Origin: Kiritimatiellia bacterium | Lineage (GTDB): Bacteria > Verrucomicrobiota > Kiritimatiellia > RFP12 > UBA1067 | Assembly (NCBI GenBank): GCA_045599445.1 | Contig: JAZRWB010000030.1 | Location: forward strand, 1 to 61,914 | DNA length: 61,914 bases | Reading direction: 5' to 3' | Shown: piece after piece, positions 3,717 to 52,950 of the stretch | Numbering within the stretch: the first letter of the stretch is position 1 | Layout of the letters: every line of letters begins with the position of its first letter | The notes under the pieces: model-generated | Told to the model about the DNA's origin: nothing | The model's input: the letters and a program-made list of their open reading frames with translations, nothing else | Databases searched by the model: none | Translations under genes and position numbers: made by a program

Positions 3717-3731
3717 CTCGCCTCCTTGAAC

Positions 3732-5762: not shown

Positions 5763-5812
5763 ATCTTTTTAACTTTCTTTCTGTTACTTGATCGTCCCAC
5801 TTGCAACCATAC

Positions 5813-6862
5813 TTACTTCACTATCAAACCAAACCTCTCGTCTACACGCTTAAAGCAAATTGCAGTTTCGCAAAGCCACTTAAACGCCGCCGGCCATTCG
5901 GTCTGGGGTGCGTTGATGTCAAATTCCTTCACGACCGAGAACGCGCCATCCATCTTGGCCATATTCCATTCAACCTTAGAGCCGACAAATTTCTCAATCT
6001 CCTCGCGGCGATCTTGAAACGCCTCAAAAACTTGCTTCGCCTTGCTAACATAGATGCCACAGAGGATATTCCCCTTCTTGGAGGTCACCCGCATGAACAC
6101 ATGATGAGTCGAGTGGTCAATTCCAAAATCGTAATAACAATACTTCCCCGGCTTGCGCAGATTAAACTCAGCCACAAACGCCTCATTCTTCTCCGCATAC
6201 TTGTTAAATGCCGTCCAGAAGGTTAAGATCGCCTTCTGTCGAGCAGACATTGACTTATCCGCACCCTTTTCATGCTTGTCATCATCCTCAAATGGTTTCT
6301 GCCTTTTCCAATCTTCGGTAATCTCACCATCCGAAAGAAGCCGCTGGACCTTCCTAAACACCTCCAACGCCTCCGCAGGACTGATGTTGAAAAACTCACG
6401 TTTAGGACTGATGCGCTTGGCATTAAAGTAATCGTGAATCAGCTCCTCAGTCTCAGAGAACTTGGATGTGCGTAGTGTCGCATAGATGTTAAACTCCTTT
6501 GGCAACGCCGTCGTAAAGAGCTGCTTTGCACGATCCTCAACCGCACCCTGCGTTTTACCGATTTTGACAATGTTCGGCTGAAAGCACGGATGCGTCAAAA
6601 TATAAACGAAACCCTCATTAGACTTTTTTCCTGTTTTGCCACCGCCCGACAATATAAAGTAACCATGCCCCGCCTTTGCAAAACGCGACTTCTCTCCCTG
6701 CTTCTTGATGTCCTCATATATTGATGCACCAACCGAATCCTTAGGCGTTGATCCTCCCGGTTGCCAAAATCCGCGTTCGGTTATTTCCGCCGTCAACTCA
6801 GCGCATTTCATCGGCCTCCTTGCCGACTTTAGTACCTCATATGCCGCATCTAGAATATTCAT
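5813..6862 (-). CDS. HARE-HTH + GIY-YIG (T5orf172) + DUF4268-like three-domain nuclease
   Basis: N-terminal DAAYEVLK...PM...EL...I...G..P..S..ASIY.DI...G..SRF (HARE-HTH). Central GFVYILT.P....VKIGKT...R...L...P..F...E..IH...R.....REFF (T5orf172). C-terminal FW..F...IE...G..VEW...W...F.WL (DUF4268-like). Confidence 0.8.
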   Translation of the reverse strand: MNILDAAYEVLKSARRPMKCAELTAEITERGFWQPGGSTPKDSVGASIYEDIKKQGEKSRFAKAGHGYFILSGGGKTGKKSNEGFVYILTHPCFQPNIVKIGKTQGAVEDRAKQLFTTALPKEFNIYATLRTSKFSETEELIHDYFNAKRISPKREFFNISPAEALEVFRKVQRLLSDGEITEDWKRQKPFEDDDKHEKGADKSMSARQKAILTFWTAFNKYAEKNEAFVAEFNLRKPGKYCYYDFGIDHSTHHVFMRVTSKKGNILCGIYVSKAKQVFEAFQDRREEIEKFVGSKVEWNMAKMDGAFSVVKEFDINAPQTEWPAAFKWLCETAICFKRVDERFGLIVK

Positions 6863-6873
6863 AGCTCCCCCTT

Positions 6874-6987
6874 TTACTCCATCGGTTTGATCATCGACTC
6901 GATGAATGCGATTTCTTCTCGAGTCAGCTTGTGCTTCTTGTACAGCTTCGCCTCATCCCACGGCTCGGAAAAATCCTGCATGGGGAC
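6874..6987 (-). pseudogene. 3' remnant of an Eco57I-type R-M methyltransferase gene
   Basis: Manual translation VPMQDFSEPWDEAKLYKKHKLTREEIAFIESMIKPME* is the characteristic C-terminal tail of Eco57I-domain R-M proteins. It ends 11 bp before the GIY-YIG gene and has no upstream gene body. Confidence 0.75.
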
Positions 6988-7025
6988 TTGCCGAACCCTC
7001 CATCTGTTATGCAACACCCCAACAT

Positions 7026-7853
7026 TCATCCCAACTTCCTCGTTATTAGCTTCTGCTTAATCTGATTGCCGATTATCAAATGATCCAGCACTTCAACCCC
7101 TATTGCCTTGCCGAGCTTCTTCATCACCTCTGTCAGTTGCCGATCCTGAACACTCGGAGTTGAATTCCCACTCGGATGATTGTGGGCAAGGATAATTGAC
7201 TTGGCGTCCAATTTAAGTGCGGCAGCAAACACATCACTCGGCTGGATGGAAGTTGTAGTTGGTTCGCCCAACGAAACAAGGATTGGTTCTGAAAGCGTAC
7301 GATTCTCCAAATCAATTGGCAACACGAAAAGCCCTTCGTTCTTTCCGGCAAGCGGAATCGCCATTTGAAAAATACGCACCGCATCTTCAGCGGTCGCCAC
7401 CTCTGTTCTAACGGTTCGCGCCAGATCATCTGCCATTGTCACTCGCCCCGCCAAAGTCTGAGGCAAATCCCACATACCCATATTTCCGCGGCAAGCGATC
7501 GGCTGATCAAAACAAGCAACCTCTGACAAATCCCACCGATAGCGATAGCCCTCATTCCACAATTCGGCCGCCGCGCTCTCACGACAGGAATAATCAACAC
7601 AGCCGACAATCTTGCCCGGCCAATCGGCGACATCGCTCCACGCCGGAATCATCGCGAACTGATCAGCTGGCAAAGCCCGCGACGCCCACTGAACAAAGTT
7701 CCCGAACTCTTCCTTGCAAAACGATTTGGAACATGACACCGCACATCGCCCTTTTACCGGCGACGGACACATACTACGATTCTCAGCCCGCTTGATTCCG
7801 AGCATGATGAGAATCGCATACGGACCCGTGCACGTAAAGGCGCTGGTAATCAT
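7026..7853 (-). CDS. ASCH-like domain fused to a RadC-like JAB domain
   Basis: N-terminal GPYA.LI..GIK..ENRS...GR..V..S and G.IVG.VD...P.ACRG.MG.W (ASCH). C-terminal E.L.VL...G......P.DVF..A....A..II.AHNHPSG...PS..D...T...G.EVLDHLII (RadC JAB). Confidence 0.8.
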   Translation of the reverse strand: MITSAFTCTGPYAILIMLGIKRAENRSMCPSPVKGRCAVSCSKSFCKEEFGNFVQWASRALPADQFAMIPAWSDVADWPGKIVGCVDYSCRESAAAELWNEGYRYRWDLSEVACFDQPIACRGNMGMWDLPQTLAGRVTMADDLARTVRTEVATAEDAVRIFQMAIPLAGKNEGLFVLPIDLENRTLSEPILVSLGEPTTTSIQPSDVFAAALKLDAKSIILAHNHPSGNSTPSVQDRQLTEVMKKLGKAIGVEVLDHLIIGNQIKQKLITRKLG

Positions 7854-8152
7854 TGAAACTCAACCATCATTTCAAGCGAAGGCTCGTCACCAGAAAAATC
7901 GAGATTGACGGTGCCATACAATTCGCCATCAAGCCACTTAGCGATATTTTCGCAGACAACTTGAATGTCCAACGCAGTCATCAGTTCTCCGAACACAAAT
8001 GACACTCCGGCAAGTTTGCGCCCGTCCTTGTTGTCCCATGCCTTCATTTCAATCAGCGTCAACGAATACTTCTTGCCAAAAACGCGATTGAACAACTTTC
8101 GCTTCTTCAACATCAATTTTTGAAGCTCCACTGTTCGCCGACACCTACTCAT
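7850..8152 (-). CDS. Hypothetical protein (100 aa)
   Basis: ATGA overlaps with both neighbours support a real gene. No motif recognised. Confidence 0.6.
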   Translation of the reverse strand: MSRCRRTVELQKLMLKKRKLFNRVFGKKYSLTLIEMKAWDNKDGRKLAGVSFVFGELMTALDIQVVCENIAKWLDGELYGTVNLDFSGDEPSLEMMVEFQ

Positions 8153-9150
8153 TCTCGTTCATTTTTAAATATTGCACTAAAGTTGTAACGCCATTGCAAG
8201 GCGAAACTCATTCCAATTTTACCTTCTAATGGTTTGTTCATAATGCGTTGCCATACAGATGCACTTGGTGAATGCCAATTTTCGTTCAATGTTCGTGTAA
8301 CCCAATTTTCAGCAGACAGTATAATGCCATCATGAGTCTTGATCGATTGCTGGACACGACACAGCATCTCCTCTGGAATTAACGGTTTGTTCTTCGCTGC
8401 ATATTGCGCATTCTTCCTTGCATAGTCTTTCCGAATGCGACACATCTCATATTCCGCCGGCTTCCTGCCGACCACCACATTCTGCAACAGCTCTATTATT
8501 CTGGCGGCCTCCCAATCACTCTGATTAACATATGCCAAAAAATGAATCGCACGTTTCAACATGCATTCATCATGTCGGACAATTAAAAACTCATGTTTGA
8601 GCGCTTCCGCAAGTGCGCACAAATTTCGATCTGCTATTTCCGATCCACGAAGATAACGTAAATCCTTAATTTGCAACCTCAACCCATGATTTGCGGCCGT
8701 CAGTTTCTTTGTCTTCTGGTAATCAGTCAATAAAATAAGCGCATCATTCTCATTTCCGACAAGGCGTTCATATGCCGAAAAATACGGTTCGCTCGTGCAG
8801 AAGTTCTCCGATGGAGATTTTACCCCCAGCTCAAGTTCTGGGATGTCCACACCTTTAGCCGGGTTGATGTGAAGTTGAATTGATGACTGCAGCACGTACT
8901 TCTCAATGACACATGCCAACAATTTTTCCACGACGCTTCCAATTGTCTTGCCATCTAAATTTGGAAGCGTTTTGTCGTTTGCCAATTGCGCAAACCAACT
9001 TGGCAATTCGCCAGTCGAGTCAATGCGCTGCAGAATTGGCTTAACATCCCCAAGCTCTTCGCCAGACAGAACCTTGTTGAGCCAAGTTTTTATAACATCC
9101 AACTTACTGGAAATCAGTGCGCGATATGCACTCATACACATCCTCCTCAA
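8149..9150 (-). CDS. Putative Type II restriction endonuclease
   Basis: Coupled by an ATGA overlap to a C5-MTase. G...EKLL...GVDIPELELGVKSPS resembles a PD-(D/E)XK core. Specificity unknown. Confidence 0.65.
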   Translation of the reverse strand: MRRMCMSAYRALISSKLDVIKTWLNKVLSGEELGDVKPILQRIDSTGELPSWFAQLANDKTLPNLDGKTIGSVVEKLLACVIEKYVLQSSIQLHINPAKGVDIPELELGVKSPSENFCTSEPYFSAYERLVGNENDALILLTDYQKTKKLTAANHGLRLQIKDLRYLRGSEIADRNLCALAEALKHEFLIVRHDECMLKRAIHFLAYVNQSDWEAARIIELLQNVVVGRKPAEYEMCRIRKDYARKNAQYAAKNKPLIPEEMLCRVQQSIKTHDGIILSAENWVTRTLNENWHSPSASVWQRIMNKPLEGKIGMSFALQWRYNFSAIFKNERE

Positions 9151-10982
9151 TTAAATAACGGAAGCTCGTTTGACTCAAAACGAATCGTTTGTTGCTTGAT
9201 TATCTTTTCTAACGCATACGCAACAATAGACGGCGGAACGGCATTACCATACAATCGATACTGTTCATACACGCTTACTGCCCGGCAATGATTATCAGGA
9301 AAACCTTGAAGTCGCGCATATTCAACATTTGTCAATCTCCTGAACTTTCCATCAATTCCATACCGCTCATAATGTCGACTTGATGAAGCCGTCAGCGTTG
9401 GCGACAGCCCATCTGTTCCAAAGATAGTGTATCCCATTCTTGCACCTCCAGACTGATTGTAGAGAATACGAACTCCATTGTAAAATTTATTTACAAATTG
9501 ACTTTTTTTGATTCGTTCCAATGTATCCGCTGTAAAATCGAATTCAGGCGGCACATCCTTCTGCAAAATATCATGCAGGATTCTTTCCCGTTGAATCCCG
9601 CGTAATGGCTGAAAATCATAAGTGACACACCTTCCATTGAGCGCCAAGCCCCACTGCTGGAACTTACCATTTGCCGATGATATGTCATTCCAAAATCTTA
9701 ATTGAGCAACATCCTCACGCTTCTTAATCGGCATTGCATTAATTTCCGCCTTGGTCACAAAATACGAATCCGTATCCTTCGCTTCGCGACTACCACATAT
9801 GATAACACGCAAACGCTGCTGCGGCAGTCCAAAAGCCGCGGCATTAAACACCCGCCACTCTATCTTGTACCCAAGTTCTGATAAAGCAAACAGAATTGTC
9901 CTAAAATTACGTCCATTGTCTAAAAACAACAAGCTGTTTACGTTCTCAAGAACAAAATAACGCGGAATGTTTTTCTTCAGGATCTTCACAATGGTTTCAA
10001 ACAAAGTGCCACGATAATCATCAATTCCCATCTTCTTCCCGGCACGAGAAAAAGGCTGACATGGGAATCCGCCGGTAAGAATGTCGTGCTGTGGTATCTG
10101 ATCAACTAAATTGTTTATATCTCCCAAAACGATAGAGTCTTCCCCAAAACGATCTCTATACACTTTGACTGCACTTTCGTTTATGTCATTCGCCCAAATT
10201 GTCTTAATGCCAAGAGCATCACACGCAAGACGAAAACCTCCAATACCCGCAAAAAGCTCTACCGCCGTCAAACTTCTTGAACCCCCGGTTGGTTCTTCAA
10301 GCTCGACTGCTTCATTGACAGACTGATTTGAACCAGAAAAAACAGCTGGAATTATTACAACACCTGAAAGTCCTGCAACCGTAGTTTCGATCATCTCACG
10401 TCGTGAAATTTTACTAACACACCTCTCTGTGGATGGTTCATCACCCGCTTCGCACACGCGCAATACCTCGGGTGGAAGCTTAGACAGCAACGGCGGCAGA
10501 TAATTCGCCAATAACGGATCCTTGCGATCAGGCGAAGACAAATAGTCGCGAAGCTTCTTTTGCACCGACTTCGATGTTGCGAAGTCCTGCAGACGGACGA
10601 TCACCTTCTCAGCAAGTCCTGAAGCGGGACTGTAAACCCTTGTCTTGCTCGTGGCGTAAAGAATGTAGTTACCCGTGCCATGTGGTTTTCCCTTCGCCGG
10701 ATAACCAAATTCGGACTTCAACTCTTTTCTTGTTTTGAATCCGACAAACTTCGCCCTAAGGCATACTGGCTCTTTTTTCGCATTGAAAAGCCAAATTTCA
10801 TTCACCCGCTTTGCAAACTCGGGTTCAATCTTGTCACCGTCACAAATCGGATAGTTGTAAAAACCGGGCCACTTCTCCAACTGGCCAGATTTGTACGTAC
10901 CGACAAGCACAACCTTCTTTGCTTTTGTCGCAACCTTTTTTGGTGCGACCTTGTGCTTCTTGGATTTCATTACCTTTGCCAT
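9147..10982 (-). CDS. DNA (cytosine-5)-methyltransferase with an extra N-terminal region of about 235 aa
   Basis: Motif I ELFAGIGG, IV GFPCQPFS, VI LENV, VIII PQQRLRV, IX ARLQGFP, X LYGNAV. Confidence 0.93.
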   Translation of the reverse strand: MAKVMKSKKHKVAPKKVATKAKKVVLVGTYKSGQLEKWPGFYNYPICDGDKIEPEFAKRVNEIWLFNAKKEPVCLRAKFVGFKTRKELKSEFGYPAKGKPHGTGNYILYATSKTRVYSPASGLAEKVIVRLQDFATSKSVQKKLRDYLSSPDRKDPLLANYLPPLLSKLPPEVLRVCEAGDEPSTERCVSKISRREMIETTVAGLSGVVIIPAVFSGSNQSVNEAVELEEPTGGSRSLTAVELFAGIGGFRLACDALGIKTIWANDINESAVKVYRDRFGEDSIVLGDINNLVDQIPQHDILTGGFPCQPFSRAGKKMGIDDYRGTLFETIVKILKKNIPRYFVLENVNSLLFLDNGRNFRTILFALSELGYKIEWRVFNAAAFGLPQQRLRVIICGSREAKDTDSYFVTKAEINAMPIKKREDVAQLRFWNDISSANGKFQQWGLALNGRCVTYDFQPLRGIQRERILHDILQKDVPPEFDFTADTLERIKKSQFVNKFYNGVRILYNQSGGARMGYTIFGTDGLSPTLTASSSRHYERYGIDGKFRRLTNVEYARLQGFPDNHCRAVSVYEQYRLYGNAVPPSIVAYALEKIIKQQTIRFESNELPLFN

Positions 10983-11004
10983 ACCAAACTTCGTCGATAG
11001 TTGT

Positions 11005-11013
11005 ATTATATCA
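11005..11013 (-). promoter_or_regulatory. Extended -10 element (TGATATAAT) upstream of the C5-MTase operon
   Basis: TGnTATAAT lies 22 nt before the ATG at 10982; the same motif recurs across the window. Confidence 0.6.
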
Positions 11014-11016
11014 AAT

Positions 11017-11172
11017 CTACGCTACATTCACACTCCAGCAATTCGCTTTGCACGGCGACTTGATGGTTGTTTCCCCGACCTTCAGGAGTCCCGCGTGATC
11101 GACCGATCCGGGAATCTAATACACGTAGATGAGAAAATACGAACACGGGGCGATGTAAGGATAGTCCGTCAT
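11017..11172 (-). pseudogene. 5' remnant of an Eco57I-type/Type IIG R-M gene with an in-frame stop
   Basis: MTDYPYIAPCSYFLIYVY*IPGSVDHAGLLKVGETTIK... (TAG at 11116-11118). LIYV..I....H.G.LK.GETT is the GIY-YIG-like N-terminus of large Eco57I-domain/helicase R-M proteins. Confidence 0.6.
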
Positions 11173-11316
11173 TTCTTCTCCTGTTCCTCAATCGGCTTAA
11201 ACTCAAACGGCGGCATAAAACATATTATATTTTGCACGCCCACATGTCGTAATTGTACCAAAATCCACCCTATCGCGGACGATATTTTATGCTTTTATAA
11301 CATTTTCGTTAGGATA

Positions 11317-11345
11317 TTGACAAGCGTCGGCAGCCTCAGGATAAT
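11317..11345 (+). promoter_or_regulatory. Plus-strand sigma70-like promoter pointing towards the fucO 3' end
   Basis: TTGACA-17 nt-GATAAT. Confidence 0.5.
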
Positions 11346-11432
11346 GGCAAAACTTCCCACCCGCCAGCTCATCAAATTTCGCCCTGTCAATTCATTCCCC
11401 ATAAAGGATATCTTCTGACAACGCGAGTAATT

Positions 11433-26971: not shown

Positions 26972-28005
26972 TCGTTCGCGGCGAACACCGCCTCCAGAGA
27001 ATCACATTTCATTTTCGGCGCCTTTTCAAGCGCCCGTTCCACAAGCTCGGCGATGCCCGTCCATTTGATCTCGCCACGCAAAAACCGCGCCACCGCGAGT
27101 TCGTCGGCGGCGGCGAGAACCGCACTAGCGCATCCACCCTCCGCCATCGCCGCCTTGACGAGCCGCAAGCAGGGAAAGCGACTTTCGTCGGGTTCGCGAA
27201 AGTTCAGCGCGCCGACTTTCGCCAAATTCAATTCTTCGCGCTCCGATTTCAAACGCCTCGGATACGAAAGCGCGTATTGAATCGCCACCCGCATATCCGG
27301 CGGCGAAAGTTGCGCCAGCGTCGCCCCGTCCTCGAAGGTAACGAGACTGTGCACAATCGACTCGGGGTGCACCACGACGTCGATACGCTCGACCGGAACG
27401 TCGAAAAGCCAACGCGCTTCGAGAATTTCAAAGCCCTTGTTCATCATCGTCGAGGAATCGATCGTCACTTTCGGGCCCATCTTCCAGCGCGGATGCGCAA
27501 GCGCCTGCTCCACGGTAACCGACGCGAGATCGGATGGCGAATCGAGAAATGGCCCGCCCGAAGCCGTCAAAATCAAGCGCTCGACCGCACCGCCGCCTTG
27601 CAGACACTGGAAAATCGCCGAATGTTCGCTGTCGACCGGCAAAAACTTCACGCCCCTCGCCTTCGCAAGCGCGGTTACGAACTCTCCCGCCATCACCATC
27701 ACTTCCTTGGTGGCAAGCGCGACGTCCATGCCCTTTTCGATGGCGAGAATCGTCGGCTTCAACCCCGACATCCCGACCGTGGCGACGAGACAGACGTCGG
27801 CGTCGTTCTCCTCGATTGCTCGAACGGCGGCGTCCTCGCCGACATAGGAAGCGGCTCCGAATTCCTTCGCCAGCGCCTCGCACTTTTCCTTCGACTTGAG
27901 CGCGGCCAAGGCGACGAGACTGAAGCTTTCGGGGTGCGAACGGACAACGTCGATCGCGTTCATGCCAATCGAGCCGGTCGCCCCCAAAATTATGATCTTA
28001 CGCAT
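26950..28005 (-). CDS. dxr: 1-deoxy-D-xylulose-5-phosphate reductoisomerase
   Basis: LGATGSIG, ALATKE, PVDSEHSAIFQ, LTASGGPF, HP.WKMG.K.TIDS, NKGFE. Start trimmed to MRKIII because the longer call overlaps the tRNA. Confidence 0.96.
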   Translation of the reverse strand: MRKIIILGATGSIGMNAIDVVRSHPESFSLVALAALKSKEKCEALAKEFGAASYVGEDAAVRAIEENDADVCLVATVGMSGLKPTILAIEKGMDVALATKEVMVMAGEFVTALAKARGVKFLPVDSEHSAIFQCLQGGGAVERLILTASGGPFLDSPSDLASVTVEQALAHPRWKMGPKVTIDSSTMMNKGFEILEARWLFDVPVERIDVVVHPESIVHSLVTFEDGATLAQLSPPDMRVAIQYALSYPRRLKSEREELNLAKVGALNFREPDESRFPCLRLVKAAMAEGGCASAVLAAADELAVARFLRGEIKWTGIAELVERALEKAPKMKCDSLEAVFAANEWVWKSL

Positions 28006-28021
28006 CTTCCTAACATCGCGT

Positions 28022-28030
28022 ATTATACCA
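28022..28030 (-). promoter_or_regulatory. Extended -10 promoter (TGGTATAAT) for dxr
   Basis: Lies between the tRNA 3' end and the dxr ATG, 16 nt upstream of the ATG. Confidence 0.6.
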
Positions 28031-28035
28031 AATTT

Positions 28036-28112
28036 TGGTGGGACCGGGGAGAATCGAACTCCCAACCTCAAGTTTAGGAAACTCGCGCTCTGTCCAGTTG
28101 AGCTACGATCCC
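28036..28112 (-). tRNA. tRNA-Arg (anticodon CCT)
   Basis: GGGATCGTAGCTCAACTGGACAGAGCGCGAGTTTCCTAAACTTGAGGTTGGGAGTTCGATTCTCCCCGGTCCCACCA: 77-nt cloverleaf with TTCGA T-loop and encoded CCA. Confidence 0.96.
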
Positions 28113-28117
28113 GAAAA

Positions 28118-30622
28118 TCACTTCTTGGCCTTGACGCCGATGTCGGAGAGCTTCATCGAGATGACTCTCGAAACGCCCTTTTCCTGCTGCGAAACGCCGT
28201 AGACGAGATCGCTGCCCGCAATCGTGTGCTGGTTGTGGGTAATGATCAGGAACTGCGATTGCGCGAGAAATTCCTTGAGCTGTTCGACGAAGCGACCGAT
28301 GTTCGCGTCGTCGAGCGCCGCGTCCAGCTCGTCCAACATGCAGAACGGCGCGGGCTTGATCATGAAAATCGAGAAAAGCAGCGCCACCGCGGTCATCGTG
28401 CGTTCGCCGCCCGAAAGCAGCGTCACCGACTGCGGACGCTTGCCCGGAGGACGGGCGATGATGTCGATTCCGCATTCGAGCGGGTCTTCCTCGTTCTCCA
28501 AGAGGACGAGTCGCGCCTCGCCGCCGCCGAAAAGCCGCGTGAACATCGCCTGGAAGTTCTTGTTCGCCTGCTCGAACGTCGTCTTGAACATGTCGCCAGA
28601 AGTCGAATTCAGGTTGTTGATGAGCTCCAGAAGCTGGGCCTTGGCGGCGAGCAAATCCTCTTCCTGCGCCTTCTCGCGAGCATAGCGTTCCTCGAGCTCC
28701 TGGCACTCCTCGATCGCGACCATGTTGACCGGTCCGAGCTCGGCGATCTCCGCCTGCAACCGTCCGACCGTGACCTCCAGCTCCTCCATCGGCGGCACCA
28801 CGCCCTTCTTCCACTCGGGATCCGGCTCGCGCATCACGGCATCGGCGAAAAGCCCGTATTCGTCCTGCAAATGCTCGTAGACGTTCTGACGGCGCATCGT
28901 CGCCTCGGTCGCCTGGACTTCGAGTTTGCCGCGGAAATCCTTCGCCTGATCGAGCGCGCCGCGCTTCTCCGCGACTTGCTGGTCGGCGGCGGTAATCCGC
29001 TCGAGCATCGCCGCGCGCTTGCCGCGCTCGTCGTTGATGAGATCGACGTAGCTCGACGCCTTCGCCTTCAATTCGTCGAGCTGCGCCATCAAATCGCCCG
29101 ATTCCTCGGTCAGCTTCGCGATCGACTCCTCGTAGCCCCTGACCATCGCCTCGCGACCTTCGATCGCGCGCTCCAGTTCTTCGCGCCGCTGACGGGCGAT
29201 TTCGTTCTGCTGGCCGACGAAGGAAAGCTCCTGTTCCATCTGGCTCGTCGTGATGCGCCGCTCGGTGAGCCGCTGGGAAAGCGTCATCGAATCCGCCTCC
29301 AGCTTGCGCAGCTCCTCTTCGACGCCGCCAATCTCCGCCATCAGTATCTCGCGTCGATCCGCGGTCGTAACCGAAGTTCCGGCCTTCCAAATTTCGGTCT
29401 TGCCGTCGCGCTCGACCTCGCTATCCTTGACGAGATGCCCGGTAAGCGTGGTATTGGCGACCTCGTTGCGCTTAACGGAAACCTCTTCGCGCTTCGCGTC
29501 GATCTTCGATTGGGCGTCGGCGAAAATCGCCTCGCTCTCGGCGAGCGCCAATTTGGCGGCGGCGAGCGAATCGGTCAAAAGCTTCGTCTTCTGCTCCAGC
29601 GACTCCGCCTGCATGCGAACTTCCTCGAGCGTGCGCCGCGACCCCTCCATCTCCGCGGAATCGCGCTGAACGAACGAGCGATATTCCTCGACCCGCGTCG
29701 CGTTCACCCCGATAACCTCGCGCGCACGGCCGTAGGCGCCCTCGGCGGCGGCCTGCTCGGAAGCGAGCGTCTGCAAGCGCTCTTCGAGCTCGTGAATCGC
29801 CGAATGCATCTCCTGGGCCTCGCGCTCCGCCGCCGTAACCGTCTCCTGTGCCTCGCCAATCGCCTTGTCGATTTCGTTGCGGTTTACCGCGTTCTGCTCG
29901 AGCTCCTGATCGAAGGCGTGGATTTTCTGTTTGGAAACGTAGATGTCGATTCCGCGCAACTGGTCGCGCAGCTCCTTGTACTTCTTCGCCTTTCCGACCT
30001 GACGCTGCAAGGAGCCGATTTGGCGCTTCATTTCCCGAAGGACGTCGGCTTCGCGCAAGAGGTTCTGTTCGGTCTGCTCGATCTTCCGAAGCGCTTCCTT
30101 GCGATCGGCCTTGAACTTCATGATTCCGGCCGCTTCCTCGAAGATGCCGCGCCGATCCTCGGGCTTGGACGAAAGAATCGCGTCGATCTGGCCCTGCGCC
30201 ATCACCGAGTAGGAGGAAGTTCCGATGCCGGTGTTCATGAAGAGGCGTTGCACGTCCTTCAACCGACAGGCCTGCTTGTTGATGAAGTACTCGCCCGAGC
30301 CGTCGCGATAGACGCGGCGGGTAATCGTCACTTCGTGATAGTCGGTTCCCAGTTCCTTTTCGCAATCGTCGAAGGTAATGGACACCTCCGCGAGACCGAG
30401 TGGCTTGCGCGTGTCCGTACCGTTGAATACGACATCGGCGAGCTTGGAACAACGTAGCGCGGTCGGGCGCTGTTCGCCGAGCACCCAGCGAATCGCGTCG
30501 GAAACGTTCGATTTTCCGCAGCCGTTGGGCCCGACGATGGCGATTAGACCGGGGTCGAAGCTGAGCCGCGTCTTGTCGGCGAAGCTCTTGAAGCCAGAAA
30601 TGTTAAGCTCTTTTAAATACAT
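28118..30622 (-). CDS. smc: Chromosome segregation protein SMC, unusually short (834 aa)
   Basis: GFKSFAD, GPNGCGKSN, DAIRWVLGE, QGQID, FEEAAGI; C-terminal GPVN..AIEE, LLSGGE, LDELDAALDDAN, ITH. No canonical hinge visible. Confidence 0.92.
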   Translation of the reverse strand: MYLKELNISGFKSFADKTRLSFDPGLIAIVGPNGCGKSNVSDAIRWVLGEQRPTALRCSKLADVVFNGTDTRKPLGLAEVSITFDDCEKELGTDYHEVTITRRVYRDGSGEYFINKQACRLKDVQRLFMNTGIGTSSYSVMAQGQIDAILSSKPEDRRGIFEEAAGIMKFKADRKEALRKIEQTEQNLLREADVLREMKRQIGSLQRQVGKAKKYKELRDQLRGIDIYVSKQKIHAFDQELEQNAVNRNEIDKAIGEAQETVTAAEREAQEMHSAIHELEERLQTLASEQAAAEGAYGRAREVIGVNATRVEEYRSFVQRDSAEMEGSRRTLEEVRMQAESLEQKTKLLTDSLAAAKLALAESEAIFADAQSKIDAKREEVSVKRNEVANTTLTGHLVKDSEVERDGKTEIWKAGTSVTTADRREILMAEIGGVEEELRKLEADSMTLSQRLTERRITTSQMEQELSFVGQQNEIARQRREELERAIEGREAMVRGYEESIAKLTEESGDLMAQLDELKAKASSYVDLINDERGKRAAMLERITAADQQVAEKRGALDQAKDFRGKLEVQATEATMRRQNVYEHLQDEYGLFADAVMREPDPEWKKGVVPPMEELEVTVGRLQAEIAELGPVNMVAIEECQELEERYAREKAQEEDLLAAKAQLLELINNLNSTSGDMFKTTFEQANKNFQAMFTRLFGGGEARLVLLENEEDPLECGIDIIARPPGKRPQSVTLLSGGERTMTAVALLFSIFMIKPAPFCMLDELDAALDDANIGRFVEQLKEFLAQSQFLIITHNQHTIAGSDLVYGVSQQEKGVSRVISMKLSDIGVKAKK

Positions 30623-31632
30623 TAGATCAAGTTACGCTTGACGAGCTGCTCCGCGATCTCCACCGCGTTAAGCGCCGCGCCACGGAGAAGCTGGTCGCCG
30701 GAAACGAACATTTCTAGACCCTTCTTGTCGTCGCGCGAGATATCCTGGCGAATGCGCCCCGCGAGAACGTCGTACTTCGCCGTCGCGTCGAGCGGCATCG
30801 GGTATCCGCCGTTAAGCGGATCGTCCACGACCTTCACGCCCTCGACACCGCGCAAAATCTCGCGCGCCTCCTCGGGGGTGATGTCGTTCTCGAACTCGAG
30901 ATTCAGCGATTCGGAGTGGGCGCGTGCGATCGGAACGCGCACGCAAGTGCAGGAGAGCATCAGCTCCGGAAGATGCAGCATCTTCCGCGCCTCGTTGCGC
31001 ATCTTCAATTCCTCTAGCGTATACCAGTTCGTCTCGTCGAACTTGTCGATGTGGGGAATCAAGTTGTACATGAGCTGGTGTTGAAACGCCTTTACCGTAA
31101 GCGGCTTACCCGCCGCATAGTCGTGAATCTGGTCTTCCAACTCGGCGAGACCGGGCGCGCCCGCGCCGGACGCGGCCTGATAGGTGGAGGCGACGAGTCG
31201 CTTCAAACCCTTCGCCTTGTGGAGCGGGGCGACCGCTTCGAGCATAATCGCCGTGGTGCAGTTCGGATTCGCGATCACGCCTTCGTTCCAGTCGAGATCC
31301 TCGGCGTTTACCTGCGGAACGACGAGCGGAACCTTAGGATCCTGACGAAAGGCTCGGGAATTGTCGATCATCTTCGCGCCCGACTTCACGACCGCGTCCT
31401 TGAGCGCGATCGCGACATCGGTCTTGCCGGCGAAAAGCACGATGTCGAGCCCCTTGAAGCTGTTTTCATCCGCCTTGAGCACATGGTAACTCTCGCCCAA
31501 AATCATCTCGTCACGCTCTCGCGAAGCGAACACCTGCACCTTGCCGCAAGGGAACTCCCGCTCCTTGAGCACCTTGATCATTTCGGTGCCAACGGCGCCA
31601 ACACCCACTAAACCTACGTTATATGTCTTCAT
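30622..31632 (-). CDS. asd: Aspartate-semialdehyde dehydrogenase
   Basis: IDNSRAFR, VPLVVP.VN, IANPNCTT, STYQAASGAG, TCVRVP..RAHSE. Confidence 0.95.
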   Translation of the reverse strand: MKTYNVGLVGVGAVGTEMIKVLKEREFPCGKVQVFASRERDEMILGESYHVLKADENSFKGLDIVLFAGKTDVAIALKDAVVKSGAKMIDNSRAFRQDPKVPLVVPQVNAEDLDWNEGVIANPNCTTAIMLEAVAPLHKAKGLKRLVASTYQAASGAGAPGLAELEDQIHDYAAGKPLTVKAFQHQLMYNLIPHIDKFDETNWYTLEELKMRNEARKMLHLPELMLSCTCVRVPIARAHSESLNLEFENDITPEEAREILRGVEGVKVVDDPLNGGYPMPLDATAKYDVLAGRIRQDISRDDKKGLEMFVSGDQLLRGAALNAVEIAEQLVKRNLI

Positions 31633-44510: not shown

Positions 44511-45436
44511 CAGCCGAAAATCTCCGTCGTCAGCACTACCGCCATCGCCGCCTCCGCTGCGACCGCCCCGCGAAAGGCAACGCAACGGTCGTGTCGACCC
44601 TTAATGGAAAGTTTTACCTCGCGCATCGTCTTCAAGTCGACCGAATTCTGCTCGAGCGCAATCGAAGGTGTGGGTTTAAACGCAAGGCGCGCGACAATCG
44701 GCGAGCCGACGGTAATTCCGCCCAAAAGCCCGCCGCACCGATTCGTCCTTAAGGCGACTTCGCCGTCCTTCACGCAAAACTCGTCGTTCGCCTCGCTACC
44801 CTTCATCGCGGCGAGCTTAAAACCGTCTCCGAACTCCACGCCCTTAACCGCCGGAATCGCGAAGAAGGCGGCGGCGAGCTTCGATTCCATTCCCGCCGCT
44901 CCTGCGTCGCCCAATCCCTTCGGCACTCCGCGCGCGACGACTTCGACGACACCGCCAATCGAATCGCCTTCCGGCACTTCGCCGCCAATCGTCACTTGAG
45001 AGGAAATCTCCACTCCGCGCGCCTTCAGAATCTGCAAGGCGATTCCGCCCGCAATGCACAAAGGCGCGGTCATCCGCCCCGACCATTTTCCGCCGCCCGA
45101 GGGAAGAGAGCCGGTTTTCAGATAGGCGGCGTAGTCGGCGTGACCGGGACGCGGAATCGTTTGCATTTCGGCGTAATCTGCCGGGCGGATGTTGGTATTT
45201 TTGATAACCGCGCGAATCGTCGAGCCGTCCGTAACGCCGTTTTCGAGTCCGCGCTCGAAAATCGGCTCGTCCGCCTCTTTGCGCGGAGTGGAAAGCCCGC
45301 CTTGGCCATTGCCGGGCGCGCGCCGCTTCAAGAACGCCCTAAGCTCGCCCAAGTCGACTCGAAAGCCCTTGGGAACGCCCTCGATTTCCACGCCGATTTC
45401 CGGCGCATGGGAAGCACCAAAAATACGAAGAGTCAC
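44510..45436 (-). CDS. aroC: Chorismate synthase
   Basis: FG.SH, RRAPG, TPRKE.D, RPGHADY, SGR.TA, IPAVKGVEFG.GF, N..GG.LGGI, FKPTPSI, GRHD.C. Confidence 0.94.
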   Translation of the reverse strand: MTLRIFGASHAPEIGVEIEGVPKGFRVDLGELRAFLKRRAPGNGQGGLSTPRKEADEPIFERGLENGVTDGSTIRAVIKNTNIRPADYAEMQTIPRPGHADYAAYLKTGSLPSGGGKWSGRMTAPLCIAGGIALQILKARGVEISSQVTIGGEVPEGDSIGGVVEVVARGVPKGLGDAGAAGMESKLAAAFFAIPAVKGVEFGDGFKLAAMKGSEANDEFCVKDGEVALRTNRCGGLLGGITVGSPIVARLAFKPTPSIALEQNSVDLKTMREVKLSIKGRHDRCVAFRGAVAAEAAMAVVLTTEIFG

Positions 45437-46440
45437 AGTTTGCTCCTTTCGAGACTATCGAAGTCGCGCCAAAACGCGGGATAGGACTTTTCGACGCATT
45501 CCGCGTTAAGAACGGTTATCGGACTTCTCCAGTAGTTCGCAAGAATAGCGCTTGCCATCGCTATCCGATGATCGCCGAAGGGATCGACCGCTTCGCCGCG
45601 CGAAATCGACGCGAGCATCGACGCGGTGGATTTCAGGCGATCGCTCTCCTTGTAGCGCAAGCGTTCGGTGCCGGTGAAAGCGACATCGCGCTTCTTCGCG
45701 AAAGCGTAGGCGGCGAGCACGGGATAGAGGTCGGGCGTCGCGTCGACGTCGAGCGTGCTCGCGCCCTCGTCGATGGCGGAAATGAGTTCGACGATTTTCC
45801 TGTCGCCTTGCAAAGAATCGCCTTTAAGCCCCTTCACCTTCACGCCCATCGCGAGGAAGAACGCGGCTTGCGACCAGTCGCCTTCGACCGCTTCGGTTTG
45901 GTGGAAGCGGTAGGTTTGGCGACCGCGCACCTTCCACGTATCGCCCGAGCGCGAAAACTCGATTCCCGAAGCGATTAAAACGCTTTCGGTGAGCGCGACG
46001 TAGGCGGCGCTTTTAAGTCCACCCTCGACGACGATCTCCGAATCCCAATCGGCGAGCGGAAGCGCCATTAAAAGTCCCGAGACGAATTGCGAGGAAACGC
46101 CGCCCGGCAAAACATAGCGCGACTTGCGCTCGAACGCGAGACGCGGACGCTCGGCAAGCCGCCCTTCAAGCCGAAACTCGCCGCGAAAACCCTTTACGCC
46201 CGCAATCGGCTCCAAAAGCCGCAAGGTCGTTCCACTCTCACCGCACGGCCAGACCGGATCGCCCGAAAGCATCGCCTTCAAAACGGCGCGAGTCGCGAAC
46301 GTATCCTTGGACTCGCCCCGAATCGCGGGCGGCTCGACGCCCGAAAGCGTGGAGGCGATGAGCACGCGATGGGCGAGCGACTTGGACGAGGGAATCGTTA
46401 CCTCGCCGACTCGCTTGCCCGGCTCGAGCGTTTTCGTCAT
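45433..46440 (-). CDS. aroA: 3-phosphoshikimate 1-carboxyvinyltransferase (short, 335 aa)
   Basis: PSSKS..HR, CGESGTTLR, RP, SSQF.SGLL, EGDWS, QGD, PDL.P, LR.KESDR, DHRIAM, V.KSYP.FW. Confidence 0.92.
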   Translation of the reverse strand: MTKTLEPGKRVGEVTIPSSKSLAHRVLIASTLSGVEPPAIRGESKDTFATRAVLKAMLSGDPVWPCGESGTTLRLLEPIAGVKGFRGEFRLEGRLAERPRLAFERKSRYVLPGGVSSQFVSGLLMALPLADWDSEIVVEGGLKSAAYVALTESVLIASGIEFSRSGDTWKVRGRQTYRFHQTEAVEGDWSQAAFFLAMGVKVKGLKGDSLQGDRKIVELISAIDEGASTLDVDATPDLYPVLAAYAFAKKRDVAFTGTERLRYKESDRLKSTASMLASISRGEAVDPFGDHRIAMASAILANYWRSPITVLNAECVEKSYPAFWRDFDSLERSKL

Positions 46441-47492: not shown

Positions 47493-48502
47493 GCGTGGCG
47501 CCAAGCGTAGGGACGAAGCGCGGAAAGCTTTTTCATCATCGCCGCGAACATTTCGGGCGTTTGCGATTGCGCGCCGTCGCACAATGCGCGCGGCGGATTG
47601 TTGTGGACTTCGACGATAAGGCCGTCCGCACCCATCGCCGTCGCGCCCATCGCGCACGGCTCGACGTATTGGGCGTAACCGGTCGCGTGACTCGGGTCGA
47701 TGACGACCGGCAGATGCGAAAGCCGCTTCAAGACGGGAATCACCGTAAGATCGATGGTGTTGCGCGTCGCGGTCTCGAAGGTACGGATGCCGCGTTCGCA
47801 AACGATCACGTTCGGATTGCCGCTCGCCATAATGTACTCGGCGCTCATCAAAAGCTCCTGCAAAGTGGCGCTCATGCCGCGCTTCAGGAGAATCGGCTTT
47901 TTCGAGCGCGCTCCGACTTCCTTCAGGAGGTCGAAGTTCTGCATATTGCGCGCGCCGATTTGGATTACGTCCACATCGTTAAATAGCGGCAGATGCTCGA
48001 TTGCCATAAGCTCGGTTACGATCGGCAAGCCCGTTTCCTTCTTCGCTTCGAGCAAGATTTCGAGTCCGCGCTTGCCCAATCCCTGAAAAGCGTAGGGCGA
48101 GGTGCGCGGCTTGAAGGCGCCACCGCGCAACATGTTCGCGCCCGCGGCCTTAACCACTTTCGCAATCGCGATCATCTGTTCCGGCGACTCGACGCTGCAC
48201 GGTCCCGCGATTACCTGGAAGTTTCCGCCGCCCAACTTCACGCCCGAACAGTCGACGACCGAATCGTCGGGATGGAATTTGCGGTTAGCCGCCTTGTAGG
48301 GCTCCTGAATGCGCTGGACGCTTTCAACCGCGTCAAGCGCCTGCACAAGTCCGACGTCGATCTTCGCGACGTCGCCGACGCACCCGATCAGCGTTTCGTG
48401 CTCGCCCGACGAGACGTGGGGCGTGATGTTGCGTTCCTTGAGAAACGCCATCAAATCGTCGACCGCAGTTTGAGCGACGTTTTTCTTCAGAATTATTATC
48501 AT
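47489..48502 (-). CDS. aroF: DAHP synthase (type I-beta with ACT-like N-terminus)
   Basis: IAGPCSVE, RGGAFKPRTSPYAFQG, QIGARNMQNF, LLKRG, CERGIRTFE, DPSH.TG, EVH. Start trimmed to MIIILKK. Confidence 0.95.
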   Translation of the reverse strand: MIIILKKNVAQTAVDDLMAFLKERNITPHVSSGEHETLIGCVGDVAKIDVGLVQALDAVESVQRIQEPYKAANRKFHPDDSVVDCSGVKLGGGNFQVIAGPCSVESPEQMIAIAKVVKAAGANMLRGGAFKPRTSPYAFQGLGKRGLEILLEAKKETGLPIVTELMAIEHLPLFNDVDVIQIGARNMQNFDLLKEVGARSKKPILLKRGMSATLQELLMSAEYIMASGNPNVIVCERGIRTFETATRNTIDLTVIPVLKRLSHLPVVIDPSHATGYAQYVEPCAMGATAMGADGLIVEVHNNPPRALCDGAQSQTPEMFAAMMKKLSALRPYAWRHA

Positions 48503-49419
48503 TTCAGCATCCTCTCCAATTCCGCAATCGGCGTCTCGACCATTTCGCACTCGCCGATGCGTTTCGGCACGATCAGCGTTACCTTGTCGAACGTGCGCTT
48601 CTTGTCCATCATAATCGCCTTCACGACTTCGGACGAATCCTTGCCATCGTCCGCGGCGAATCCGTAAGCGTCGAGAATCTCGCCGATTTCGGGAATGTCG
48701 CGCCCGACGATGCGCAGCCCCATCGCCACCGCCTCGCCGTGCGATAGCGTATAACCTGAAAGCTTCTCGAAGGCATGACCGAAAGTGTGGCCGAGATTAA
48801 GTAGCTTGCGCTTGCCGCGCTCGCGAAAATCCTCTTCCACGACGCGCGCTTTCAATTCCGCGCACCGCTCGATCGCGCGATGAAGCTTTTCGCCGGTCGG
48901 CCGGCTTTTCAATAGCGCGAAAAGCTCCGCATCGAAGAGAATCGCGGTCTTGATCATTTCGGCGAAACCGTTCTTCATTTCGCGCTCGGGCAAGGTTTCG
49001 AGAAACGCGTAATTGCGGATGATTTCCAGCGGAGCGTGGAACGCGCCGACCAAGTTCTTGCCCTCGGGAACGTCCACTCCGGTCTTGCCGCCAATCGAGG
49101 AATCGACCATCGCCAAGAGCGTCGTCGGCACTTGCACGAACCCGATTCCGCGCATATAGGTCGAGGCGGCGAATCCCGTAAGGTCTCCGACCACGCCGCC
49201 TCCGAGCGCGTAGGCGACGTCGCTCCGCGTCATGCCGAGCGCGGCGAACCCGCGCACGAGTTCGCAATAGGTTTCGAGCGTCTTGGACTTCTCGCCTGCG
49301 GGAAAGACGATGCGCTCGACGCGCTCGGCGCGGTCCGCAAGCGAGGAAACGAACTTGTCGCCGTGGAGTCGATCCACGTTCGAATCCGTAACTACGGTTA
49401 TTGAGCCGAGCTTCTTCAT
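48499..49419 (-). CDS. aroB: 3-dehydroquinate synthase
   Basis: GE.SK, LGGGVVGDL.GF.ASTYMRG, PTTLLAMVDSSIGGKTG, KNLVGAFH.P, LNLGHTFGHA.E, HGEAVA.G. Confidence 0.94.
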   Translation of the reverse strand: MKKLGSITVVTDSNVDRLHGDKFVSSLADRAERVERIVFPAGEKSKTLETYCELVRGFAALGMTRSDVAYALGGGVVGDLTGFAASTYMRGIGFVQVPTTLLAMVDSSIGGKTGVDVPEGKNLVGAFHAPLEIIRNYAFLETLPEREMKNGFAEMIKTAILFDAELFALLKSRPTGEKLHRAIERCAELKARVVEEDFRERGKRKLLNLGHTFGHAFEKLSGYTLSHGEAVAMGLRIVGRDIPEIGEILDAYGFAADDGKDSSEVVKAIMMDKKRTFDKVTLIVPKRIGECEMVETPIAELERMLK

Positions 49420-51204: not shown

Positions 51205-51822
51205 CTATGCGAACTTGACGAACTTACGCACTGCTTCGCCAATCTTTGCCTTAATTTCCTCCCATTTCACTGGAACGAACATTTTGGGCATAGGATCGTC
51301 TTCCGCATCGTCAAAATACGTAAGACCACGAAGGGCGAACGAAATCTCCGAAACCGCAAACTTGCGTTTGTACAAATTAAACATCTCCAAAAGCGAATAA
51401 CGGTTCAGCAAAAACGCAATATCAATGAAGTCTTTTTTCTTTCCGCGATTGGCAACCGCGGAAAGTTTCATTGCGGCAATATCATCGCTTCCGGCAAGAA
51501 CGACCCCGCTTTCAGCAACCGGGCTCGAAATCCACGGATACTGATAATTGACCAAATCCACCTTGATATCATCGACGAGTAACGATTGAACCTCGCCACT
51601 TTCGACGCCTTCCACCCGGTGACCAAGTTCCGATAAGATTTTGCGAAATGACTGCTTACCGTCGAAATTACCAAATAAGTCAATATCCACCGAGGCACGA
51701 TGACCCATTTGCAACGCCAAAGCAGTTCCACCGACAAGCCGCATATCCTTCAATTCGGAATGCGCTTGCAGCGTTTTCAGTAAATCCAAGGTGCTTGTGA
51801 GGACTGTTTCGCAGTGTAGCAT
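51205..51822 (-). CDS. AbiEii/AbiGii-like nucleotidyltransferase toxin
   Basis: LVGGTALALQ.GHR.S.DIDLF, IAAMKL.A...RG.KKDF.D, L.YFDDAE.DPMP. Start trimmed to MLHCETV. Confidence 0.88.
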   Translation of the reverse strand: MLHCETVLTSTLDLLKTLQAHSELKDMRLVGGTALALQMGHRASVDIDLFGNFDGKQSFRKILSELGHRVEGVESGEVQSLLVDDIKVDLVNYQYPWISSPVAESGVVLAGSDDIAAMKLSAVANRGKKKDFIDIAFLLNRYSLLEMFNLYKRKFAVSEISFALRGLTYFDDAEDDPMPKMFVPVKWEEIKAKIGEAVRKFVKFA

Positions 51823-52061
51823 CGGAAGCTTTCCTTGGGAAGATTGGCAATACAAGCAATAAACGACAGCGCTTTCGGCTCCAAAGTTCGCAAATTCCTG
51901 GCAACCTCGACGATAACCTTCGCGCCATAATACTCGAAGGCAACCCGCAAATCCGCAAACGCCCCGCGCTCCAGTACGCGCTGAATCACATACTTTTTAT
52001 TGGCGTCGAAATCCAACTGTTCGGGATCGGCGTCCCAAAATAGATTAGGCGAATACCCCAT
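51777..52061 (-). CDS. DUF6922-like small partner/antitoxin protein
   Basis: S..LFWD.....LD...K.YVI.RVLERG...D......YYG; overlaps the toxin gene. Start trimmed to MGYSPN. Confidence 0.8.
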   Translation of the reverse strand: MGYSPNLFWDADPEQLDFDANKKYVIQRVLERGAFADLRVAFEYYGAKVIVEVARNLRTLEPKALSFIACIANLPKESFRCYTAKQSSQAPWIY

Positions 52062-52067
52062 ACCGAT

Positions 52068-52076
52068 ATTATACCA
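52068..52076 (-). promoter_or_regulatory. Extended -10 promoter (TGGTATAAT), leaderless TA operon
   Basis: 6 nt before the ATG at 52061. Confidence 0.65.
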
Positions 52077-52099
52077 ATTCCCATTCACTGCGGTCAATC

Positions 52100-52400
52100 C
52101 GCCGCTATCTGCGAAATAATAGCTCAAAGACCCTCGCGCGGACCCTTGCGGGCGGCTTCGCCGTTGCCTTCGGCAATCTACCCTCCAAAAGCTTCGCTTT
52201 CTGCGGCGCATCCCCAATTCCGGCGCAAACAAGAAACGCATCCGTGCGACGCACGGCACACGCGCCTCCATTAGGTACCCGAAACGACATATTCGTCCCT
52301 CCGCTCCGCACTGGGCGCTCGGCACTCGGCTTCGCCTCGGCTTTCCGCTCACTTACGTTCGCCCCTCAAAACAAGTTTTTCGGCGGCTACAACGCGCAAA
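52100..52400. other. Intergenic cluster of short hairpins (structured ssDNA or RNA element)
   Basis: CCCTTGCGGG 52143, CGGCTTCGCCG 52153, TTGCCTTCGGCAA 52164, AAAGCTTCGCTTT 52188, CCGTGCGACGCACGG 52242, GGCTTCGCC 52328, CGGCTTTCCG 52338, AAAACAAGTTTT 52368. Confidence 0.65.
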
Positions 52401-52466
52401 GGGATTCCCGAAGCGACTTGTCGACTTCTCGTTCCTCGCTGGGCAAAAGTTATCAACATTTTTCCA

Positions 52467-52940
52467 TCAATGGGGTCGGACCTTACTGCGACCTACCTTA
52501 GTCTGCGTCCTAACCTTTCTTCTCGGCATATCCACCGCTCTCCCATGCCGAATATCGTACTCGTCCGCCCTACTCTTAATCGCCCGACACATCGCGGCGA
52601 TTGCCACGCCGACGATAAGGATTACGCTTTCTATCGCCAGCGATAATAAGAAGATTCCCACGGTCGGCCGATCCGCCCTCAATACGATCAGCAAAACGGC
52701 ATTCAGCGCAAAGAGCAATAAAAGCACAATCTGAATCTTGTGGCTGTTCTGCTTCAGCCCGGCCATGCACTTATCGTCAAACTCCACCGCCGCCTCAAAA
52801 TTGCACGCCTTGCAAATCATCACCCACGCCGAATGTATGCCCTTAGCTATGAGTACTATCAGCTCGTAGATGATCCCGAAAAAGATCATCCACAGTATCC
52901 ACGATACTACCGAATCCCACGCTCCTTTGTCTTTACTCAT
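52467..52940 (-). CDS. Hypothetical membrane protein (about 3 TM)
   Basis: Three hydrophobic stretches and a basic C-terminal tail; ATG lies 10 bp after the helicase stop. Confidence 0.6.
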   Translation of the reverse strand: MSKDKGAWDSVVSWILWMIFFGIIYELIVLIAKGIHSAWVMICKACNFEAAVEFDDKCMAGLKQNSHKIQIVLLLLFALNAVLLIVLRADRPTVGIFLLSLAIESVILIVGVAIAAMCRAIKSRADEYDIRHGRAVDMPRRKVRTQTKVGRSKVRPH

Positions 52941-52950
52941 AAATCTTTTA

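Follow-up and report, generated by a model that had tools for sequence, protein, structure and literature searches.

The 61,914-nucleotide contig JAZRWB010000030.1 of a Kiritimatiellia bacterium (GenBank assembly GCA_045599445.1), hereafter the window, carries an smc gene on its minus strand (28118..30622), which encodes a protein of 834 amino acids (aa) from an ATG start to a TGA stop. We interpret this protein as the lineage's own working chromosomal Smc, the ATPase of condensin, in a naturally minimised form, and put the probability of this reading at roughly 0.7. A canonical Smc is about 1150–1200 aa long and possesses a central hinge of about 150–170 aa, whereas the 834-aa form has a beta tip of 31 residues and arms that are about 110 residues per strand shorter. 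We also offer, more tentatively and at somewhat less than even odds, the wider proposal that, throughout this clade of gut and rumen Kiritimatiellia, the chromosome is organised by an Smc in which the hinge shrank stepwise to a single 31-residue beta-hairpin dimer contact, the arms then being cut by about one super-helical period.

Identity and head domains

The protein scored 810.3 bits against the NCBIfam equivalog model TIGR02168 (SMC_prok_B; cutoff 567.35), in two stretches, the first of which pairs residues 2–393 with profile positions 1–393 of 1181. The Pfam SMC_N match spans residues 2–818. The head structure of Bacillus subtilis Smc (5xg3) aligns to residues 1–219 and 623–827 with an E value of 1e-127, and the Walker A, signature and Walker B motifs are all visible in this alignment. 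The N-terminal half of the head (residues 1–165, 30128..30622; all parts of the gene are given on the minus strand) falls within a gapless alignment to the B. subtilis head that covers residues 1–219, and holds Walker A at residues 31–38. The C-terminal half (residues 626–834, 28121..28747) matches the C-terminal part of the same head, with the signature at residues 736–740 and Walker B at 760–767. The initial annotation, which described an 834-aa protein with both head halves canonical, was thus borne out by the profile score and the structure-based alignment.

Judged by eye, the heads are about 55% identical to those of the canonical Smc of Smc-ScpAB (TIGR02168; B. subtilis). The likeness extends to the Walker A, signature and Walker B motifs, the intramolecular antiparallel coiled coil, the equivalog score above the cutoff and the nesting among full-length SMCs in the gene tree. 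The public record of one relative's protein carries only the name "AAA family ATPase". An open reading frame (ORF) of 853 aa lies antisense to the gene at 27896–30457; it is without a Pfam match and has a GC content at third codon positions (GC3) of 0.64, compared with 0.81 in the smc sense frame, and is therefore regarded as a shadow ORF.

A beta tip in place of the hinge

A Pfam scan at E ≤ 1 revealed no SMC_hinge domain (PF06470) in the 834-aa protein, as had been expected at the outset. A clade-tuned hinge hidden Markov model (HMM), built from 104 full-length relatives, likewise found nothing credible in the 834-aa class, while full-length proteins reached about 1e-49 over positions 1–198. 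In an AlphaFold2 model of the monomer, made from a 50-sequence alignment (mean predicted local distance difference test score, pLDDT, 68.9), helices occupy residues 158–389 and 421–589, and the arms have a pLDDT of 80–94. Only residues 390–420 lie between the arm helices, and there is therefore no room for a hinge domain. An interruption of the coiled coils by about 35 aa, at about 29365–29460, had been pointed out in the initial annotation, and it is found here as 31 non-helical residues (390–420, 29363..29455) in which two short strands are predicted at 401–405 and 408–412, with a pLDDT of 62–67. The tip is flanked by the N-terminal coiled-coil strand (residues 166–389, 29456..30127) and the C-terminal one (residues 421–625, 28748..29362), the latter modelled as helix over 421–589.

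Across 50 sequences, six of the 31 tip columns are invariant, in an alternating pattern, and five more are at least 90% conserved; the conserved positions are G395, L397, V403, R405, G407, E410, W412, G415, T416, V418 and T420. No cysteine occurs between residues 120 and 639. Two strongly conserved, nearly invariant patches are located on opposite strands of the arms, one at residues 338–358 (29549..29611; invariant Q338, S341, Q344, K345, L349, S352 and L353) and the other at residues 449–472 (29207..29278), also recognised by its invariant columns. Every length class retains both, as does the 1188-aa relative described below, and in the 834-aa form they lie just 30–50 residues from the tip. 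They may represent an arm-arm contact or a partner-binding site. A two-copy prediction of residues 335–475, made from a cropped alignment, gave a score of 0.23 against a mark of 0.42, which speaks neither for nor against binding.

An exhaustive similarity search over 1.84 billion representative proteins identified as the best match a protein of 1188 aa, P0122, which is 67% identical and has a Pfam SMC_hinge domain at residues 525–630 (E = 4.8e-15). The two proteins are collinear up to residue 389, after which residue 420 of the 834-aa protein corresponds to residue 776 of P0122. Relative to P0122, 354 residues are missing in frame. The loss comprises about 110 residues of the N-terminal distal strand (390–499), 108 residues of the C-terminal distal strand (668–775) and about 143 of the approximately 168 hinge residues; the retained part aligns to the last hairpin of the hinge, P0122 643–667. 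The local score of this alignment is 42, compared with a shuffle mean of 23.5 (standard deviation 3.6), and none of 2000 shuffles reached 42. Seen through this nearest relative, the sequences indicate that the 31-residue tip is derived from the hairpin that ends the hinge.

The initial annotation had proposed an in-frame, roughly symmetric loss of about 350 aa, leaving a tip that resembles the last strands of a hinge. The frame, size and symmetry of the loss agree with the comparison to P0122, but a single event does not, as the gene tree shows steps. The resemblance of the tip to the last hinge strands, for its part, holds against P0122 and is not significant against more distant SMCs.

Conservation and order of loss among relatives

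In a word-indexed search of protein clusters, the 120 best-scoring clusters all contain proteins of 830–838 aa that are 79–99% identical to the query, none of them with PF06470. One of these clusters is named from Candidatus Colisoma equi, of the phylum Kiritimatiellota. A genome scan, for which the peptide patterns were specific to close relatives, gave 270 hits; the 80 best of these yielded 78 loci, whose record titles mostly denote metagenome-assembled genomes (MAGs) of Kiritimatiellia or Kiritimatiellae. A complete smc ORF is present in 67 of the 78 loci: 34 of 832–839 aa, 4 of 885–889 aa, 6 of 917–921 aa and 23 of 1095–1110 aa. The remaining 11 were set aside, eight being cut by contig ends, two having interrupted ORFs (L031 and L072) and one being a fusion with lpxB (L035). 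The 832–839-aa form thus occurs in 34 independently assembled species-level genomes. A comparison of SMC lengths among relatives had been recommended from the beginning, and its outcome is that the same form, at 830–839 aa, recurs in these 34 genomes and in all 120 best-scoring clusters.

Column conservation in the 834-aa class was calculated from 24 of 46 sequences, those more than 95% alike having been removed. Invariant columns make up 75% of the heads (123 of 165 in the N-terminal half, 155 of 209 in the C-terminal half), 32–35% of the arms and 6 of the 31 positions in the tip. The pooled ratio of nonsynonymous to synonymous differences per site (pN/pS), from six pairs, is 0.043 in the N-terminal and 0.097 in the C-terminal half of the head, 0.268 and 0.249 in the arms and 0.346 in the tip; these values are rough, with synonymous sites near saturation (pS 0.27–0.87), and all are well below 1. 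Because the gene is both conserved and constrained, it is very probably functional.

The length classes differ in how much of the hinge and arms they keep. In the 1188-aa relative the hinge is complete. The ~1098-aa class (23 loci) combines full-length arms with a hinge remnant of about 85 aa, which the hinge HMM detects at 1e-5 to 1e-7 over positions 63/68–142 only, and which AlphaFold2 models with a mean pLDDT of 59. Shortened arms and remnants of about 55–75 aa are found in the ~920-aa (6 loci) and ~887-aa (4 loci) classes, where the HMM gives marginal domain E values of about 0.05–0.9. The 834-aa class (34 loci), with the shortest arms and the 31-residue tip, is the most reduced. At E ≤ 0.01, Pfam recognises a hinge in no class shorter than 1188 aa.

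A gene tree was built from 74 rows and the 821 columns common to all classes, leaving out the variable middle, using IQ-TREE (LG+G4, quick search) with Shimodaira–Hasegawa-like approximate likelihood ratio test (SH-aLRT) support and, to root the tree, five distant full-length SMCs. The 68 reduced rows together form the sister group of P0122 (support 100), and among them the ~1098-aa class makes up a basal grade. Two ~920-aa lineages and an 834/~887-aa clade (support 97) are united in a clade of 45 rows (support 98). The ~887-aa form is placed inside the 834-aa class (support 86), where either a retained state or a re-expansion is possible. The simplest reading of this gene tree is that the hinge was reduced first, as in the ~1098-aa class, and that the arms were shortened later, as in the ~920-, ~887- and 834-aa classes, suggesting that the reduced form arose stepwise within gut and rumen Kiritimatiellia.

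Genomic context

The gene belongs to a housekeeping operon. Directly upstream lies asd, encoding aspartate-semialdehyde dehydrogenase (30622..31632, minus strand; Pfam Semialdhyde_dh and Semialdhyde_dhC), whose TAA stop overlaps the smc ATG by one base (TAATG), and fabF and glnS are also found upstream. A tRNA-Arg(CCT) gene (28036..28112, minus strand), identified by ARAGORN and from the sequence, begins five bases past the smc stop and is followed by dxr, rseP and ispG. The mechanically called dxr ORF, with a TTG at 28071, overlaps this tRNA, and the real dxr start is therefore placed further downstream. Among the 78 loci, asd is located directly upstream of smc in 15, of which 13 belong to the 834-aa class and two to the ~920-aa class; it is upstream in none of the ~1098-aa loci, one of which (L074) has glnS and fabF upstream.

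Two blocks of low GC content, 1–11400 and 51500–61914 (0.43–0.50, compared with 0.58–0.61 in the core), contain defence-type genes. The first encodes DarT with a NADAR antitoxin (908–2344), a UvrD-like helicase (2337–3716), a T5orf172/DUF4268 protein (5813–6862), RadC (7026–7853) and a C5 DNA methylase (9147–10982). In the second we found a PLD-SNF2 helicase (52951–56355), a Schlafen/AlbA_2 protein (56478–57929) and an Eco57I/TaqI_C-type methylase (57972–61742). Elsewhere in the window, an aromatic amino-acid cluster (44600–46440 and 48499–49419) includes a 5-enolpyruvylshikimate-3-phosphate (EPSP) synthase ORF of 335 aa, in which the profile is matched from about position 161, and a 3-dehydroquinate (DHQ) synthase ORF of 306 aa. 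Adjacent ORFs on the plus strand lack a Pfam match, and frameshifts or wrong mechanical ORF starts may be involved.

Some of the scanned loci have peculiarities of their own. In L035 (10001–13495) the smc ORF extends to about residue 779, beyond which the same frame encodes LpxB (Pfam, 1.2e-62), with the end of the C-terminal head lost; this is probably a deletion or an assembly join. The smc ORFs of L031 and L072 stop after 146 and 460 aa, respectively, while the tblastn match continues, which points to a frameshift or stop in those assemblies. Kiritimatiellia-type smc genes were also found in records titled Muribaculaceae, Barnesiella, Faecalibacterium, Anaerovoracaceae and Gemmiger (L027/L033, L051, L056, L059 and L062), probably because contigs were assigned to the wrong bins; two smc copies (L027 and L033) lie in a single bin of this kind.

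Proposed mechanism and alternative explanations

In canonical Smc hinges, the hairpin region that is retained here carries dimer contacts and lies at the dimer interface. We propose that the minimised Smc works as follows. Two molecules, each folded as a hairpin, would be joined at the tip, where the retained hairpins would pair across the dimer axis. With the arms shortened by about one super-helical period, the heads would still face each other correctly. Together with a kleisin partner, the dimer would form a smaller ring, with arms about two-thirds of the normal length, that would load on and move along DNA like Smc-ScpAB, and this lineage would be able to do without the hinge doughnut and its DNA-binding surface.

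Several observations weigh against a minimised chromosomal Smc that dimerises through its tip. Dimerisation of the tip is itself a supposition. With five more distant full-length SMCs, the similarity of the tip to the hinge falls short of significance, 97–1759 of 2000 shuffles reaching the score; in two of the five the best match occupies a comparable position within the middle segment, presumably that of the corresponding hairpin. An hhalign comparison of the tip with the 104-sequence hinge profile picked the same hairpin at a P value of 0.025 and a probability of just 1.9%. In the AlphaFold2 model the tip reaches a pLDDT of only 62–67, the heads are poorly modelled and the underlying alignment is shallow, and the pN/pS values are rough, as said above. 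The order of loss is taken from a gene tree only, for which the search was quick and support was assessed by a single measure; several of its outgroup branches are also long. Neither scpA nor scpB was found among 41 ORFs scanned in the 62-kb window. Likewise, a scan of 150 ORFs representing the flanks of related loci (348 ORFs of 130–340 aa from the 78 loci, in 298 groups, 165 of which passed a GC3 filter) gave no match to ScpA or ScpB, and the kleisin partner is therefore assumed. A second, full-length smc may also exist elsewhere in the genome, the scan having used patterns specific to close relatives and the best 80 of its 270 hits.

It could be argued that the tip is a mere tight folding turn, and that two closed hairpins are joined only through their ATP-engaged heads and the kleisin, together with lateral zipping of the arms, or else through a RecN-like bundle of coiled-coil tips. 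The small size of the tip (31 residues) fits this explanation, as do the modest AlphaFold2 confidence there and a variability slightly above that of the arms (mean entropy 0.91 compared with 0.73–0.81 bits; pN/pS 0.35 compared with 0.25–0.27), and the conserved patches on both arm strands, 30–50 residues from the tip, could carry arm-arm contacts. Yet the six invariant and five at least 90% conserved tip columns in 50 sequences, among them W412, E410, R405 and two glycines, are beyond the need of a simple turn, and the piece that was kept is the dimer-contact part of the canonical hinge. We consider a pure turn unlikely, while giving it serious weight.

Another explanation is that the gene encodes a specialised paralogue, an SMC-like ATPase of defence or repair, with a canonical full-length Smc elsewhere doing the chromosome work. 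PADLOC profiles do match the protein, namely mad3 of MADS (232 bits over residues 448–824) and LmuB of Lamassu (87 bits), and defence-type islands are present at both ends of the window. Both scores are far under the 810 bits of the Smc equivalog, however, and membership in either system was rejected, the neighbours being asd, tRNA-Arg, dxr, rseP and ispG. Translationally coupled to asd and set among dxr, rseP, ispG, fabF and glnS, the smc gene is more than 17 kb from the defence islands, and in the tree it nests with ordinary full-length SMCs, to which it is linked by the intermediate classes. Nor is there, in any of the 78 clade loci, a full-hinge ORF that reaches about 1150 aa; the single ORF of 1165 aa (L035) is the smc-lpxB fusion. 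A paralogue of this kind thus appears improbable. That the short gene is an assembly artefact, or a lone decaying allele, is scarcely credible: although two of the 78 loci have interrupted ORFs and one has the lpxB fusion, so that the MAG assemblies are not error-free, the same architecture recurs in the 34 independently assembled genomes and in all 120 best-scoring clusters, and the ORF is intact, with a GC3 of 0.81 and pN/pS well below 1 in every segment.

Comparison with published SMC proteins

The analysis of SMC arm lengths in PMC5344682, as far as we consulted it, reports natural prokaryotic modes of 238, 341 and 515 aa and a dominant periodicity that nearly equals the super-helical period of about 99 aa. 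By our own domain boundaries, which are not those of that study's pipeline, the arms of the 834-aa form measure about 230–235 aa, near the 238-aa mode, and those of the ~887-, ~920- and ~1098-aa classes are estimated at about 245, 256 and 340–349 aa. The loss of about 110 and 108 residues per strand corresponds to about one coiled-coil super-helical period. The shortened arms pointed out in the initial annotation are not in themselves unusual, arms near this length being a known natural mode (238 aa; PMC5344682). The pipeline of that study placed head and hinge regions by alignment, according to its description, so that hinge-less proteins are presumably outside its length distribution.

The engineered Mini-Smc and Smc(Zh) proteins of Burmann et al. 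2017 (PMC5344682), as described in the parts we drew on, resemble the natural form in that short arms work in certain length regimes only and the hinge is replaceable. B. subtilis Smc arms were reported to work again at 253–267 aa, and the legend of Figure 5 terms an Smc with a Rad50 zinc hook in place of the hinge functional, so that a small apex dimeriser is compatible with Smc function in at least one species. The natural Kiritimatiellia arms, estimated at about 230–260 aa, are inside or near these working regimes. Mini-Smc and Smc(Zh) are, however, laboratory constructs with a full hinge or a zinc hook, whereas the 834-aa tip is, on our reading, an evolved hinge remnant without metal-binding cysteines.

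Rad50/SbcC shares with the 834-aa protein the ABC heads and a long coiled coil that ends in a very small apex, which in Rad50 dimerises. Its apex is a CxxC zinc hook, whereas the 834-aa Smc lacks any cysteine in the region from residue 120 to 639, and the Rad50 NCBIfam models scored 37–66 bits against cutoffs of 700–1087; identity with Rad50/SbcC was thus rejected. None of MukB, MksB, JetC and RecN appeared in the top 25 matches, whether of the 38 from NCBIfam or of the 55 from PADLOC.

According to the initial annotation, the mini-hinge would, if functional, be a novel minimal dimer interface for an SMC. As a kind the form is not new, as natural hinge-less SMCs have been published for marine Actinomycetes (PMC12153180, 2025), where, in the portions available to us, an abundant clade without a CxxC hook is described and argued not to consist of paralogues. 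Those proteins, which we compared by description only, are similar in having heads and a coiled coil with neither hinge nor CxxC. They differ in phylum and habitat, and the portions available describe no intermediates or analysis of arm length. The Kiritimatiellia form is likely of independent origin, because the relatives of the window gene are all Kiritimatiellia-type loci. Our literature search returned no paper combining Kiritimatiellota and SMC, and natural hinge-less SMCs were found described once. The hinge passages of a 2023 review (PMC10512200) mention no natural hinge-less Smc.

Reduced-hinge relatives of the same orthologous gene (~1098, ~920 and ~887 aa) possess partial hinge remnants, the ~1098-aa class keeping full arms. 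Outside the clade, the 150 best representatives included eight apparently whole SMC-like proteins of 829–988 aa from other lineages (P0237, P0155, P0230, P0232, P0235, P0242, P0247 and P0256). In seven of them Pfam detects no hinge at E ≤ 0.01, and in P0237 (829 aa, 40% identical) only the first half of it is left (custom HMM positions 1–99, 6e-8; partial Pfam match, 1e-4). The reduced-hinge relatives, P0237 included, hold 55–100 hinge residues, and the 834-aa form is more reduced than any of these. In the ESM Atlas, short SMC_N clusters of 722–1018 aa have Spirochaetota, Pseudomonadota and Actinomycetota as their commonest phyla, and the families displayed for each cluster, three at most, do not include SMC_hinge; such clusters serve as leads only. 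In the same way, the clusters of 722–736 aa, commonest in Actinomycetota, may be the marine hinge-less SMCs. Judging from these sequences, reduction of the hinge may be recurrent.

Implications

What the SMC hinge does beyond joining the arms is still argued, with DNA binding, a gate for DNA entry and the bypass of obstacles all under consideration, and the reason for the tight conservation of arm length in SMCs is an open question. A conserved natural loss of the hinge constitutes a natural test of what the hinge is for. What the Kiritimatiellia clade adds to the hinge-less SMCs is a new lineage, with living intermediates and the smallest remnant among those seen here, and not a new kind. Both of the experiments described from the laboratory, with a mini-dimeriser and with altered arm lengths (in the sections of PMC5344682 used here), appear to have been carried out by nature in a conserved orthologue, the intermediates surviving in sister species.

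For annotation, the reduced form explains the bare "AAA family ATPase" name in the public record. It also provides structural biology with a putative native dimer module of minimal size, supplies natural arm lengths that may be set against the periodic rule, and allows one to ask whether partners such as ScpAB or ParB were lost or changed along with the hinge. If our interpretation is true, the forms of 1188, ~1098, ~920, ~887 and 834 aa would be natural intermediates with which each part of the hinge and distal arms may be probed, and the hinge channel, its DNA-binding surface and any role as a gate for DNA or obstacles would be dispensable for a native condensin.

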